Shown: positions 776-22,008, counted from the stretch's first letter. The stretch is DNA of 24,000 nucleotides from Candidatus Bathyarchaeia archaeon (GCA_038872815.1 JAVZFM010000003.1:1-24000); one strand, 5' to 3'. The notes: generated from the sequence alone by a model not told the origin. Numbers and translations are program-made.

Positions 776-1196
776 TTGAGTAAGCCTGAAGAAGTAGGTT
801 CGCTTAAAGTTGGCCAATATATAGTCATCGATGATGAACCTTGTAGAATAGTTGAGCTTGAGAAAAGTAAGCCCGGAATGTAGTCAATTTAAACTACCCG
901 GATAACATGGATCTGCTAAAGCTAGGATAGTTGCTATTGGAGTCTTTACTAATCAAAAAAAGAGCATAATCGGCCCAGTAGATGCTAAAGTAGATGTACC
1001 TTTAATAGATAAAAAAAGTGGACAAGTGATAGCGATTGCTGGAGAAATAGTTCAATTAATGGATATGGAAACTTATCAAACCTTTGAAATTTCAATGCCT
1101 TTAGAGGATGAAATAAAAAATAAGTTAGCTCCAGGAGTAGAAGTTGAATACTGGAGTATGCTGGGAAGAAATAAAATAGTGAGGGTTAAGGGTTAA
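776..1196 (+). CDS. eif5a: Translation initiation factor 5A (aIF5A), split gene: join(776..878,904..1196), 131 codons after removal of a 25-nt BHB intron
   Basis: TTG at 776 has an in-frame TAA directly upstream (773-775). Exon 1 encodes (M)[33 protein letters not shown] plus the first base of a codon. Exon 2 supplies AA, then [96 protein letters not shown], with TAA at 1194-1196. The joined protein has the SKPGKHGSAKA hypusine loop and full-length similarity to crenarchaeal aIF5A as I recall it. Read contiguously, the frame stops at TAG 881-883. Confidence 0.88.
879..903 (+). other. Putative archaeal bulge-helix-bulge (BHB) intron, 25 nt, inside the aIF5A coding sequence
   Basis: Central 4-bp helix: CCGG 873-876 pairs with CCGG 898-901. 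3-nt bulge AAT 877-879. 5-bp helix GTAGT 880-884 with ACTAC 893-897, closed by the 8-nt loop CAATTTAA. Second 3-nt bulge ATA 902-904. Cleavage after the 2nd nucleotide of each bulge (the BHB rule) removes 879-903 and joins A878 to A904-A905, giving AAA (Lys) in frame. The outer exon-exon helix is weak (G871-C906, A869-T908, T868-G909), so this is a relaxed form of the motif. Confidence 0.8.
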
Positions 1197-9553: not shown

Positions 9554-10036
9554 TTGTTGGGATTAATTGATTCTAAAGATATAGTGGATTTTATAGTAAC
9601 TAATTACAAACATGCAAAAAAAATAGTAGAAGTAATGATTGGAAATCATCCTTGGATAGCTATTGGTATTAAAAAACGTTTGCCTAATGTTGAGCTTTTA
9701 GTTACGGATATCGATTTAGAAAAACTAAAAGATATTAAAACTAAATTTCCATTCTTAAAATGTATAAGCGATGATATCATGTTACCCTCATTGAATTTAT
9801 ACGAAGGAGCAGATTTAATCTATGCTATAAGGCCGCCACCAGAGCTAATAAACGAAATAGTTAAGCTAGGAATAAAAATTAAAAGCGATGTTTTAATTAG
9901 AAGTTATTCAAATGAAACTTGTGGATTTGAGTTTGAAAAGCGAAAGGGATGGATTAAAATAAAGTATGGATATGCTATGCTTAATCTACTAAGATATAAA
10001 AGCTTAATCAAAATAGGAAAAAGCCTAAATGGTTAA
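9554..10036 (+). CDS. UPF0146-family protein (Rossmann/methyltransferase-like fold, function unknown)
   Basis: IVEVMIGNH..IA..., VTDID, DDIMLPSLNLYEGADLIYAIRPPPEL match my recollection of the archaeal UPF0146 (MTH1000-like) family. The stop overlaps the dph2 start (ATGGTTAA). Confidence 0.6.
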   Translation: MLGLIDSKDIVDFIVTNYKHAKKIVEVMIGNHPWIAIGIKKRLPNVELLVTDIDLEKLKDIKTKFPFLKCISDDIMLPSLNLYEGADLIYAIRPPPELINEIVKLGIKIKSDVLIRSYSNETCGFEFEKRKGWIKIKYGYAMLNLLRYKSLIKIGKSLNG

Positions 10037-11048
10037 TGATAAAGTATTGGAATTCGATTTAGAGGAAAAACGCTTAATAGAGATCATTAAAAAGAGAAAA
10101 GCGAGAAGTGTTTTAATTCAATTACCAAACGGTTTAAAGAAATATGCCATAAATTTAATAAGCCTTATCGAGGAAAGCACAAAAGCCATTGCATATATTT
10201 CTGGAGGAGCTTGTTATGGCGGTTGTGATTTAGCTTTACAAGATGCAAAGGCATTAAAAGTAGATTTGATAATACATTATGGGCACTCTCAATTTGTATT
10301 TAAGAATTCCCATGGTTTCAACATCGCTTACTTTAATACTCCGTTTAAACTTAATCTAAGCGATTTAATCGAAAAAACTTTAATCTTAATGGAGAAGGAA
10401 AAAAAGTATGGTTTAGTAACAACAACTCAGCATTTACATCAACTAGAAGATATTAAAAAGCTTCTCGAAAAAAATGGTTATAGCGTAATCATACCTTTAA
10501 GAGGAAAATTTTCAATCTATAACGGTCAAATATTGGGTTGTAATTATAGCTCGTTAAAAAGCATCGAAAAAGAAATAGATGGTTGCTTAATAATTGGAAG
10601 CTATTTTCATGGCTTAGGTGCAACTCTTTGTTTGGATAAGCAAATAATACTTGTTGATCCTTATAGCTATGAGGCTATCGATATATCCTTTGAAAGGAAT
10701 AAATTACTAAAACAAAGGTATTCCTACATAAATGCTGCTAAAACTGCAAAAAACATTGGTATAATAATAGGAATGAAGATTGGGCAATACAAACCTAAAA
10801 TTGCTCAAAGATTAAGAAAATTAGTTAAGGAAAGTGGAAAAAACCCTATACTAATATGCATGGATGAAGTTGTCCCTGATCGTGTTAATAACTTTACTGA
10901 AATTGAAGCATTTGTTAATACTGCCTGTCCAAGAGTTTCAATAAATGATGCTTCAAGATTCTTAAAGCCTATTTTAACGCCTAAAGAATCCTTAGTTGCT
11001 TTAGAAAAATTAGATTGGAAAGATTTAATAAAACAAGGAATATTCTAA
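10029..11048 (+). CDS. dph2: 2-(3-amino-3-carboxypropyl)histidine synthase Dph2 (diphthamide biosynthesis, radical SAM-type 4Fe-4S)
   Basis: 339 aa: SVLIQLPNGLKKYA, ISGGACYGGCD, DLIIHYGHS, ILGCNYS and NTACPRV. The three conserved Cys regions of archaeal Dph2 are present. Confidence 0.88.
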   Translation: MVNDKVLEFDLEEKRLIEIIKKRKARSVLIQLPNGLKKYAINLISLIEESTKAIAYISGGACYGGCDLALQDAKALKVDLIIHYGHSQFVFKNSHGFNIAYFNTPFKLNLSDLIEKTLILMEKEKKYGLVTTTQHLHQLEDIKKLLEKNGYSVIIPLRGKFSIYNGQILGCNYSSLKSIEKEIDGCLIIGSYFHGLGATLCLDKQIILVDPYSYEAIDISFERNKLLKQRYSYINAAKTAKNIGIIIGMKIGQYKPKIAQRLRKLVKESGKNPILICMDEVVPDRVNNFTEIEAFVNTACPRVSINDASRFLKPILTPKESLVALEKLDWKDLIKQGIF

Positions 11049-19800: not shown

Positions 19801-20799
19801 TTATAACATCTTTAACGAAGGAATGACTTCATCTTTGAGTATAGAATACACTTGATTCTCTTTTCCAGATGGTATTATGATTACAATTCCATCCACGCCA
19901 TTTTTTACAAGTTCTTTAGCATTTTCAATACATGCATCTGTTGTATTCACAATTGGGTATATTTTCATTATCTCATCTGTTACTAACTCAATAGCTTCTG
20001 AAACTTTCTTGCATTTTTTAATCTTTTTAATTGTATTCATTATTCTTGAATCAACTTAAAGCATCTCTAGAATAGAGTTAGGTGTATCAATTATAGCATT
20101 CGCCACTCTTAACTTTAAAAACTTTTTAAATTCTTCATTAAGCATAGGGTTAAGTTCTATCCCTCCATATATTTTGATTTCCTCTAGCTTTCTTCCAGCT
20201 TTATAAGCACCTTTTTTTATTTGATCTATCACAAAATTCGATGAACTTGAAGGCATAAGTCCATAAAATACGCCATCTGCTAACATACCTGCAGTTTGTA
20301 GTATTTGAGGACCCCTTCCAACTATAAATATCGGTATGGATTTCCTAATAGGGTTGAATAAAAGTTGAGCTTCTTTAAGCTTAAACATTTTTCCATCGTA
20401 ATCGACTATTTCTCCTCTAATCAAGCGCTTACATATTTCAATAGTCTCTTTTATGGCGCTTATCGGTTTATTCCACATTGTAATACATAAGGGTTTAAGC
20501 GTTAGCGAACCACCAGGGCATAAACCAAGTTCTACTCGACCATTCTAGATTTCATCAAGAGTTGCTACTGCAGAAGCTATAATTGCTGGGTGGCGAGTAT
20601 AAGGATTAGTTATGAAGAATAGCTTAATTATATCCGTTTTCATTGCAATAGCTGAAAGAATGGAAAATACATCTCTAAATGAGAAGTCATCAGCATACAT
20701 TATGAAGTTAAAGCCAATTTCTTCTATCATTCTTACATATTTTATTAAATCTTGAAATGTTCCTTTGTATGCAATTAAGCTTATCCCTAATTCCAGCAT
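19801..20799 (-). pseudogene. LLM-class (luciferase-like / F420- or flavin-dependent) oxidoreductase, one 333-codon frame interrupted by in-frame TAG and TAA
   Basis: Track ORFs 20545..20799, 20056..20478 and 19801..20040 lie in a single frame. Stops: TAG (complement of 20545-20547) in ...ATLDEI*NGRVELGLCPGG..., and TAA (complement of 20056-20058) in ...NSILEML*VDSRIMNTI.... Homology (TNPYTRHPAIIASAVATLDEI, IPIFIVGRGPQILQTAGMLADG) continues across the TAG without any frameshift; the TAA is also in frame. Confidence 0.75.
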
Positions 20800-20813
20800 T
20801 TTTCATTCCTAAT

Positions 20814-21863
20814 TCATTCTTTGAAGCTTTGGATTATCTTTTCTCCAAAAAGTTTAAGAAATTTTCCTGATTCTCCCCATTCTTTTCGCATTATTGGTAT
20901 TATCTGAGTAATCCCCGCCTTCTTTAGTTTTTCTACTTCACTAATGCATTCCTCGATACTCCCTACTATACAGTATGCATCAACCATTTTATCTAACAAT
21001 TTATCGTTTACAAATTTTTGAGCTTTTGTAAAATTGTACTCATGTATTTCCTTTCTTATTGGATTTAGTTCCTCTATTGTAAAGCCTAATGCATCAGCCC
21101 ATTCTAATGTCCATTCTCCACCAACGAAAACAGTTAGTAATGGTCTTAAAATCTTTTTGGCTATTAACATATCTTTTTTTGACCTTATTATCATGAAAGG
21201 TAAAACTATTCCTATTTCTATATCTTTTAGCCTTCTTCTAACAATTTTAGCGCCCTTGCTAATATGATCGATCATACGCTGTACATACATCAAGGTTTTG
21301 CCATGAGTTAATGTGCCGTTGCATAGTTCTCCAACAAGTTTAAATTTCGATCCTCTAGTAGCTAGATATATTGGTATATCCTTCCTTGTAACATAATGAA
21401 GTCTCACATCTTTAAGATAAAAGAATTTTCCGTTATAGTTTACAGATTTGCCTTTCCATAATGCTTTTATTACTTAAATAGCTTCTCTACAAATCGCTAA
21501 AGGTTTTTTCGCATTTATACCAAGTTTAACTGTTGCCTCGTACCCTGCAGAGCACAACCCAGCAACAACTCTACCATTTGAGATTTTGTCTACTAAAGCT
21601 ATAGCTGATGCTATACACACTGGATGCCTTAAGTATACGCTATTAGCACAAGGAGCAAGCTTAATTTTCTTTGTTTGTGTAGCTGCATATGCTAAAGCAG
21701 AGCATGAATCTATGTAAGCATGATCAGCACTAAGCCAAAGATAATCAAAACCTAATTTTTCTGCAAGTTTTGAATGCTTGCTACATTCTTCTATAGGAGG
21801 TATCATTATACCAAACTTCAAAAATTGACACCTTCTAAAATCATTAAGAAACTGATGACCCAT
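20814..21863 (-). pseudogene. LLM-class oxidoreductase paralogue, 350-codon frame interrupted by one in-frame TAA
   Basis: Track ORFs 21474..21863 and 20814..21407 are in the same frame. TAA (complement of 21474-21476) falls in ...CREAI*VIKALWKGKSVNYNGKFFYLKD..., where the neighbouring paralogue has GAA (KETIEICKRL). Motifs: LRHPVCIASAIALVDKISNGRV, IPIYLATRGSK. Confidence 0.75.
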
Positions 21864-22008
21864 TTAAGTTTTGGAATAACCTTCGCTTATATGGATATTC
21901 GAAAAAAATAAAAAGGAGAGAAGATACATTTTTGCTCATATCTATATATGGCTAAATCATATAATTTTAAACTTATGATGATAACTTATTTTAAAAAAGG
22001 GGCATTCT

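Follow-up and report, generated by a model that had tools for sequence, protein, structure and literature searches.

We analyzed a 24-kb stretch of DNA from Candidatus Bathyarchaeia (31% G+C), referred to here as the window, in which the gene for the translation factor aIF5A is interrupted by 25 nt at positions 879 to 903. We conclude with high confidence that this insert is an archaeal bulge-helix-bulge (BHB) intron within the aIF5A coding sequence. As a kind, introns spliced by the archaeal endonuclease are already known; what is new is aIF5A as the host gene and a distribution far broader than one locus. Structure alone is weak evidence for such an element, and the case is decided by comparison with relatives, which yielded homologous inserts in 38 other sequences.

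Removal of 25 nt restores the aIF5A reading frame

The aIF5A open reading frame lies on the plus strand, as do the other features of this locus. From its start codon, TTG 776, it reads ...E-K-S-K-P-G (AAG CCC GGA) and then meets ATG TAG. The UAG at 881 to 883 would end translation of the unspliced message after 35 residues, before the lysine that receives hypusine. A second open frame extends from CAT 906 to the stop codon TAA at 1194 to 1196, and a TAA at 903 to 905 shuts that same frame just upstream. Removal of 879 to 903 (TGTAGTCAATTTAAACTACCCGGAT) joins A878 to A904-A905, giving the lysine codon AAA and a product of 131 aa. Exon 1 (776 to 878) ends with the first base of the hypusine lysine codon, and exon 2 (904 to 1196) starts with the remaining AA; in relatives, tblastn matches break at residue 34/35. 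The junction is unique, as moving the 25-nt deletion by one base in either direction gives TAA or ATA, and no other 25-nt deletion yields lysine. A preliminary description of this DNA, made from the sequence alone, had placed the frame break at ATG TAG and the restart at 904, had derived the K-P-G-K-H-G-S-A-K loop and a 131-aa protein, and had stated that the lysine codon exists only after splicing (A/AA). Translation, Pfam searches, and full-length alignment agree with it on all of these points, down to every coordinate.

The spliced product has the expected properties of an aIF5A. It matched the Pfam families IF5A-like_N (PF21485, 3.8e-20), eIF-5a (PF01287, 6.6e-14), and EFP_N (PF08207, 4.7e-07), and it was 73 to 77% identical to intact aIF5A proteins of 130 to 131 aa over 99 to 100% of its length. 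The named matches were mostly from Bathyarchaeia or Hecatellales. It contains the N-terminal KOW-like and C-terminal OB domains and the K-P-G-K-H-G hypusine loop, and it is associated with the gene for deoxyhypusine synthase (DHS), the enzyme that modifies the lysine encoded across the splice junction. No second copy of the intron sequence was found in the window.

The two open frames might alternatively encode two polypeptides, or a C-terminal fragment that works alone without the hypusine loop, and gene callers do give C-terminal fragments of 45 to 66 aa for these loci. However, exon 2 has no in-frame start at its beginning, the first being GTG 1026, 40 codons in. A split gene would also lose the hypusine lysine although its dedicated modifier, DHS, is conserved next door, and the ends of the exons are conserved so as to rebuild K-P-G-K-H-G. 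A functional split gene is thus extremely unlikely. A self-splicing group I or group II intron was ruled out, since the insert measures 25 nt compared with hundreds for a ribozyme core and the window had no Rfam match.

The insert and its flanks form a BHB motif

In the minimum free energy (MFE) structure computed with RNAfold, CCGG at 873 to 876 pairs with CCGG at 898 to 901 to form a 4-bp central helix (H). Its 5' strand is exonic, covering positions 2 and 3 of the Pro codon and positions 1 and 2 of the Gly codon, and its 3' strand is intronic. The helix lies between two 3-nt bulges on opposite strands, AAU (877 to 879) and AUA (902 to 904), the first of which is bulged in the MFE structure. 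The inner helix (h') consists of 5 bp between GUAGU (880 to 884) and ACUAC (893 to 897) and closes a terminal loop of 8 nt (885 to 892), which in relatives measures 3 to 9 nt and is free in both length and sequence. Besides the MFE fold, covariation among relatives (see below) supports both strands of h' and both strands of H. This is exactly the BHB fold given in the preliminary description. Its cleavage sites, 878/879 and 903/904, were also recovered when the tRNA 37/38 case was used to work out the canonical layout afresh, in which one strand of the 4-bp helix comes from the 5' exon and each strand has its bulge 3' of the helix.

The splicing endonuclease EndA is predicted to cut 3' of the second base in each bulge, at 878/879 and 903/904, and these cuts alone rebuild both K-P-G-K-H-G and the reading frame. 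The cut positions are matched by intron-less contigs of a 36-nt variant (see below). We estimated the odds that the sole frame-restoring excision is also BHB-compliant by chance as ∼72/(48,000 positions × 106 lengths), or 1.4e-5.

The same site is occupied in independent assemblies and sister species

The window sequence, insert included, is also present in two NCBI Candidatus Bathyarchaeia metagenome-assembled genomes (MAGs) from different samples, GCA_038871295.1 and GCA_038882795.1. Outside the insert, the gene copy in GCA_038882795.1 differs from the window by one amino acid. The identical insert was also present in a Logan assembly made independently from SRR27170999. The preliminary description had raised the possibility of an assembly artifact, and the source is indeed a MAG. 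Nevertheless, the identical insert in two MAGs that differ elsewhere in the gene and in the Logan assembly, together with homologous inserts in dozens of unrelated assemblies, makes the probability of an assembly or sequencing artifact negligible.

Searches with protein queries place intron-bearing genes low in the ranking, and we therefore looked for relatives through the neighboring DHS gene, an unbiased handle. The two nearest relatives, L082 (DHS 86% identical) and L083 (DHS 83% identical), had no full aIF5A gene call and carried an insert at the identical site. The inserts were UGUAGUCAAUUUAAACUACCCGGAU (25 nt) in the window, UGUAGCAAUUCAAGCUACCCGGAU (24 nt) in L082, and CGUAGUCGAUUUAGGCUACCCGGAU (25 nt) in L083. 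At its fifth pair, the inner helix has U-A in the window, C-G in L082 (GUAGC/GCUAC), and U.G in L083. The L082 insert is a multiple of three, yet it holds two stops.

The spliced coding sequences of the three species differed at 14 to 17% of bases, and 73 to 75% of these differences fell at third codon positions. Among the codons that differed, 33 to 46 did so synonymously compared with 15 to 16 nonsynonymously. With their bias toward third positions and synonymous codons, these differences show that both exons are subject to purifying selection when read in the spliced frame.

In the relatives next in line (DHS 66% identical), aIF5A was uninterrupted, as it was in all 80 best loci of the genome collection when the spliced protein was the query, a ranking that favors single long matches. 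Among 5.8 billion protein clusters, which include the proteomes of these MAGs, none exceeded 77% identity to the spliced product, and there is therefore no sign of a second intact aIF5A copy.

The insert belongs to a family with covarying helices

We scanned metagenome contigs for 12 to 42 extra bases between AAGCCNGGNA and ARCAYGGNNNNGCNAARGC. Thirty-six of 85 readable loci were aIF5A genes split at residue 34/35, 35 of them at the identical position and 1 shifted by 1 nt. One further aIF5A match was a false positive in an intact gene, and tblastn matched none of the remaining loci to aIF5A. With the window, L082, and L083 added, the metagenome contigs provided 32 distinct junction sequences. 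Insert lengths were 21, 22, 23, 24, 25, 26, 27, 28, 29, 31, 32, and 36 nt, covering all three classes modulo 3, and all 38 sequences checked had a stop in the exon 1 frame within the insert. Every spliced product was a collinear aIF5A with K-P-G-K-H-G, the exon ends being conserved precisely enough to rebuild this loop.

It is important to note that the pattern search was not exhaustive, because the register of one locus, L127 (∼620 to 700; JGI Ga0272445_1000448), is shifted by one base. This locus has a 35-nt insert, an H of CGGA/UCCG, and a junction of AA/A rather than A/AR, and it was found only through a chance pattern match inside the intron. More variants like it surely exist.

Across the family, H is CCGG/CCGG or CUGG/CCAG. 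Bulge 1 is N-A-N, its first base being the third position of the Gly codon, which varies among A, U, and C, and bulge 2 is N-N-A. The inner helix has 5 to 11 bp, with 100% of cells in the alignment paired. An outer, exon-exon helix (h) with C-G and G-C pairs, at positions equivalent to C872-G905 and G871-C906, is present in 31 of the 32 variants. The window is the exception, lacking the C872-G905 pair because its lysine codon is AAA and not AAG. It is the only variant with AAA (base 905) and has the weakest BHB motif in the family. Thus, the window copy is a relaxed form, and the family as a whole is of the near-canonical hBHBh' type. The weak outer helix noted in the preliminary description is confirmed for this genome but does not hold as a family trait.

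We measured covariation on a MAFFT alignment, with the 3' partners slid by 1 to 3 columns and 500 shuffles as controls. In the predicted register 96.6% of cells were paired, compared with 17.6 to 33.8% in the slid registers. Four pairs changed on both sides (42 cells), including three of the five inner-helix pairs, and none of the 500 shuffles reached the observed covariation. The synonymous third base of the Pro codon covaries with an intron base (column 10/47), with 15 C-G and 17 U-A pairs among the variants; this pair involves the exonic strand of H. These counts are not independent events, as the sequences are related and the search pattern fixes part of the exons; the intron columns were unconstrained. 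The comparison of related aIF5A loci that the preliminary description had proposed therefore came out in its favor, with both the insert and its compensatory pairs conserved in L082, L083, and the metagenome contigs.

These comparisons bear on whether aIF5A was simply inactivated by a 25-bp insertion, with the BHB-like fold a coincidence. Unspliced, the gene is truncated after 35 residues, its fold energy is not unusual, and two luciferase-like genes in the window also hold in-frame stops, so that some decay or consensus error does occur there. Set against this are the purifying selection on both exons in three insert-carrying species and the retention of the insert at the same site across lineages of Bathyarchaeia and Nitrososphaeria, its helices having undergone compensatory changes. 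Further, aIF5A is regarded as essential, and no other copy was detectable. A pseudogene is thus a very unlikely explanation.

Intron-less contigs of the 36-nt variant

For the 36-nt variant, the protein collection contained the predicted spliced product (P0345), which is encoded uninterrupted on four contigs of 1.9 to 2.7 kb with a Nitrosocaldus-like aIF5A (L192 to L195; JGI 3300058672, 3300043278, and 3300043286 and Logan SRR35977026). These contigs were 99.5 to 99.8% identical to intron-bearing genomic contigs on both sides, with exactly the 36 predicted bases missing (for instance, 1381 to 1416 of L132). The intron-less junction, GGUA/AGCA, is unambiguous and matches the predicted BHB cuts. 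All four contigs span the genes for AdoMetDC, spermidine synthase, and aIF5A and start within 12 nt of each other, ∼22 to 30 nt downstream of a TATA-like CTTAAAATTA. At its 5' end, L192 repeats 61 nt of internal sequence in inverted orientation, resembling a cDNA chimera. These properties suggest that the four contigs are assembled polycistronic transcripts, probably from metatranscriptomes, which would make them spliced mRNA.

The aIF5A gene lies directly downstream of spermidine synthase in L132, L149, L111, L154, and L135, and AdoMetDC lies further upstream on L194 and L195. In these Nitrosocaldus-like contigs, aIF5A adjoins genes of the polyamine substrate pathway and not DHS, as it does in Bathyarchaeia.

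Contigs lacking the intron also bear on the idea that the RNA is left intact and the ribosome crosses the insert, either by hopping, as in T4 gene 60, or through programmed frameshifting. The locus has a superficial take-off and landing look, with CCCGGA on both sides (872 to 877 and 897 to 902), a stop close by, and a hairpin between. However, landing on GGA 900 to 902 or CCC 897 to 899 would meet the TAA at 903 to 905, a +1 shift would meet the same TAA, and no matched pair yields Lys-His. The 24-nt insert of L082 would need no change of frame, yet it has its two stops, and lengths of 21 to 36 nt within a BHB geometry that is conserved are as expected of an endonuclease ruler and not of codon matching. 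As sequences without exactly the intron exist at the nucleic acid level, we consider translational bypass highly improbable.

Distribution of the intron

The intron is homologous across several lineages of Bathyarchaeia and Nitrososphaeria; in each of the two classes, some members carry it and others do not. A neighboring protein of the 32-nt variant, L107, is identical to WP_103287049.1/SPC34255.1 of Candidatus Nitrosocaldus, which is also recorded on a 1.6-Mb contig. By their neighboring proteins, variants of the 21- to 23-nt group fall among MAGs labeled Nitrososphaerales or Candidatus Nitrosomirales, and the 27-nt variant and L127 belong to Bathyarchaeota/Bathyarchaeia. The 26/29-nt group has 54% G+C and the Bathyarchaeia synteny of NAD kinase, aIF5A, and DHS. 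Its aIF5A proteins are 84 to 94% identical to intact aIF5A from soil and peat Bathyarchaeia MAGs, with flanking DNA ∼80% identical. Among these Bathyarchaeia, the 29-nt intron is present in L106 and L092 and absent from L061, L048, and L041, although the aIF5A proteins are 94% identical and the flanking DNA ∼80%. This difference points to a relatively recent gain or loss.

The intron ends are alike across the two classes (U-G-Y-A-R ... Y-R-C-C-C-R-G-A-U). This similarity is compatible with common descent, and it could also reflect constraint from the exon and the enzyme. One reading, which we offer as a speculative and rather doubtful one, is that the intron is more than a parasite that the host tolerates, being instead an ancient element already carried by the ancestor that Bathyarchaeia and Nitrososphaeria share. 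It would tie the synthesis of an essential, hypusine-dependent translation factor to EndA and the ligase RtcB, as a posttranscriptional checkpoint analogous to XBP1/HAC1 splicing. Alternatively, it may be a mobile BHB intron that repeatedly targets the ultraconserved, palindromic CCNGG of the hypusine loop. The similar ends, the AAG lysine codon kept in 31 of 32 variants, and the presence or absence of the intron between 94% identical proteins are compatible with either.

Proposed mechanism and points against it

We propose that the aIF5A transcript, possibly extending into DHS, is made with the 25-nt insert, so that direct translation would stop at UAG 881 to 883 and give 35 residues without the hypusine lysine. 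The RNA would fold locally into the BHB motif, with the helix of 873 to 876 and 898 to 901, bulges at 877 to 879 and 902 to 904, the inner helix of 880 to 884 and 893 to 897, and, between the exons, a weak outer helix. Cleavage after the second base of each bulge would be the work of the tRNA-splicing endonuclease EndA, in this lineage expected to be of (alpha-beta)2 type, and an RtcB-type ligase would join A878 to A904 to create the AAA codon of Lys35. The 25-nt intron would be released, probably as a circle. The 131-aa aIF5A could then be translated and its Lys35 converted to (deoxy)hypusine by the product of the adjoining DHS gene. Both the BHB motif and its relaxed forms have been defined, with relaxed motifs cut by no EndA other than the (alpha-beta)2 and epsilon2 types (PMC5829648). 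The (alpha-beta)2 form occurs widely in TACK archaea, including Thaumarchaeota, according to a paper that does not mention Bathyarchaeia (PMC5829648).

Several observations weigh against this interpretation. In the window, the outer helix, formed by 868 to 872 and 905 to 909 (the 3' strand as placed by comparison of junction variants), is nearly absent, being limited to G871-C906, A869-U908, and U868.G909, with a C872×A905 mismatch. The motif is also not uniformly canonical in the family; four Watson-Crick pairs form H in 21 of the 32 variants, and in the other 11, those of the 26/29-nt group, the fourth pair is G.A. Further, the fold energy is ordinary (z = −1.49), with 16 of 200 shuffles folding equally well. 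A scan for relaxed BHB motifs (a 4-bp helix, a 3-nt bulge, an inner helix of at least 5 bp, and an insert of at most 120 nt) found 73 in the window compared with 72.1 in Markov shuffles, such motifs being common in this AT-rich DNA. None of the others in the window coincides with a broken gene. Thus, of the fold and motif scan suggested in the preliminary description, the first part returned the predicted structure as the MFE and the second a frequency close to that of the shuffles, and we rejected both thermodynamics and motif counts as evidence for the intron.

Other points concern transcripts and gene copies. The intron-less contigs may instead represent an intron-less allele of the same population; intron-less genomic alleles do occur in more distant relatives (94% amino acid and ∼80% nucleotide identity). 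For the window, L107, and 12 further variants, the spliced protein was absent from the protein collection, so that the transcript-like contigs are confined to the lineage of the 36-nt variant. The incompleteness of MAGs leaves the search for a second aIF5A copy short of strict proof. Finally, splicing in this organism is something that we infer, as are the enzymes and the circular product, and neither EndA nor RtcB is encoded in the 24-kb window.

Gene neighborhood

The DHS gene lies at 1206 to 2156 on the plus strand (Pfam DS, 1.2e-98) and is a 100% match to the NCBI MAG protein P0140; database gene calls start it at 1221. The adjacency of aIF5A and DHS is conserved in Bathyarchaeia, and in the window, SRP54 comes next after DHS downstream of aIF5A. 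On three Bathyarchaeia MAG contigs (L018, L033, and L065), the DHS match downstream of aIF5A is in two pieces, by deletion or overlapping frames, which may be frameshifts, assembly errors, or something else. A second gene for the modification of a translation factor, Dph2 (diphthamide synthesis, 10029 to 11048), lies ∼8 kb from DHS. Both sit in a dense block of information-processing genes, namely L21e, Rpb4, KsgA, L10e, Csl4, RpoL, TFS, PCNA, PriL/PriS, Gins51, and L44e. Neither cbf5 nor any tRNA gene was found in the window, and the tRNA and Rfam scans were empty.

The luciferase-like genes are two tandem monooxygenase (PF00296) paralogues on the minus strand at 19950 to 21866, with in-frame TAA at 21474 to 21476, TAG at 20545 to 20547, and TAA at 20056 to 20058. 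Compared with the Pfam profile, they contain no additional sequence, and each of the three stop codons is also used as a normal terminator in the window. We therefore rejected the idea that these genes are split by introns or recoded, as the stops are plain nonsense codons without inserted sequence. They are probably pseudogenes or consensus errors.

Significance and comparison with known systems

A second case in coding sequence would make endonuclease-type mRNA splicing more than a one-gene curiosity. The host here is a universal translation factor, and the intron falls exactly on the codon for the hypusine modification unique to it. Carriers come from two major, environmentally abundant classes and include a contig assigned to Candidatus Nitrosocaldus, a genus with published enrichment cultures; a cultured ammonia oxidizer would make it possible to test splicing, and any regulatory role, directly. 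As gene calling leaves these aIF5A genes out or gives them as fragments, completeness estimates and metabolic reconstructions may wrongly score the aIF5A marker as absent or as a pseudogene in these lineages. The variants, from 21 to 36 nt and from canonical to relaxed, also form a natural substrate set for studying how (alpha-beta)2 EndA recognizes a non-tRNA target.

As of 2020, the cbf5 mRNA of Crenarchaeota was the only reported mRNA with a BHB intron besides the 5' untranslated region (UTR) of HVO_1309 (PMC7714728), in line with the preliminary description, which had named cbf5 as the precedent in coding sequence. A 2025 paper on EndA structure likewise cites only the cbf5 papers for protein-coding introns, and no later coding-sequence case turned up in the full-text literature. 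The preliminary description knew of no intron described in aIF5A, and we found none in the full-text literature, where subscription journals were not covered and the result is absence of evidence only. The same negative result, with the same scope, was obtained for introns in Nitrosocaldus or Bathyarchaeota.

The closest parallel is the cbf5 pre-mRNA intron (Watanabe 2002; Yoshinari 2006; Yokobori 2009, PMC2738675). Both are short introns in the coding sequence of a TACK archaeon, with a patchy presence, gain and loss among relatives, and a host gene of the translation or RNA machinery. In contrast, the host of the former is a pseudouridine synthase in Sulfolobales and Desulfurococcales, whereas here it is aIF5A in Bathyarchaeia and Nitrososphaeria. 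The aIF5A intron also splits the single codon of a posttranslationally modified residue. Moreover, cleavage was shown biochemically for cbf5, whereas the aIF5A intron is known from sequence.

The BHB introns of tRNA and rRNA (hBHBh'; Marck and Grosjean 2003, as relayed in PMC5829648) are alike in having 3-nt bulges, a 4-bp helix, and cuts after the second bulge base. As in those introns, the central helix is half exonic and half intronic, and the sizes of the aIF5A introns are within the tRNA intron range. Unlike them, the aIF5A intron is hosted by an mRNA without a tRNA body for recognition, and the exonic parts of its motif are constrained by codons, with an outer helix of 0 to 2 bp. The 5' UTR intron of Haloferax volcanii HVO_1309 (Schwarz 2020, PMC7714728) shares with it an mRNA substrate of the archaeal splicing endonuclease. 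It differs in lying in the untranslated leader of a euryarchaeon, where its removal rebuilds no reading frame.

In the eukaryotic HAC1/XBP1 mRNAs, Ire1 cuts at paired stem-loops and RtcB or Trl1 joins the exons, XBP1 losing a 26-nt intron with a change of frame. The proposed splicing of aIF5A resembles this system in its use of a protein endonuclease and of joining by a tRNA ligase and, in the case of XBP1, in a short, frame-changing intron. In contrast, HAC1/XBP1 splicing relies on the Ire1 endonuclease and another motif and is stress regulated and cytoplasmic.

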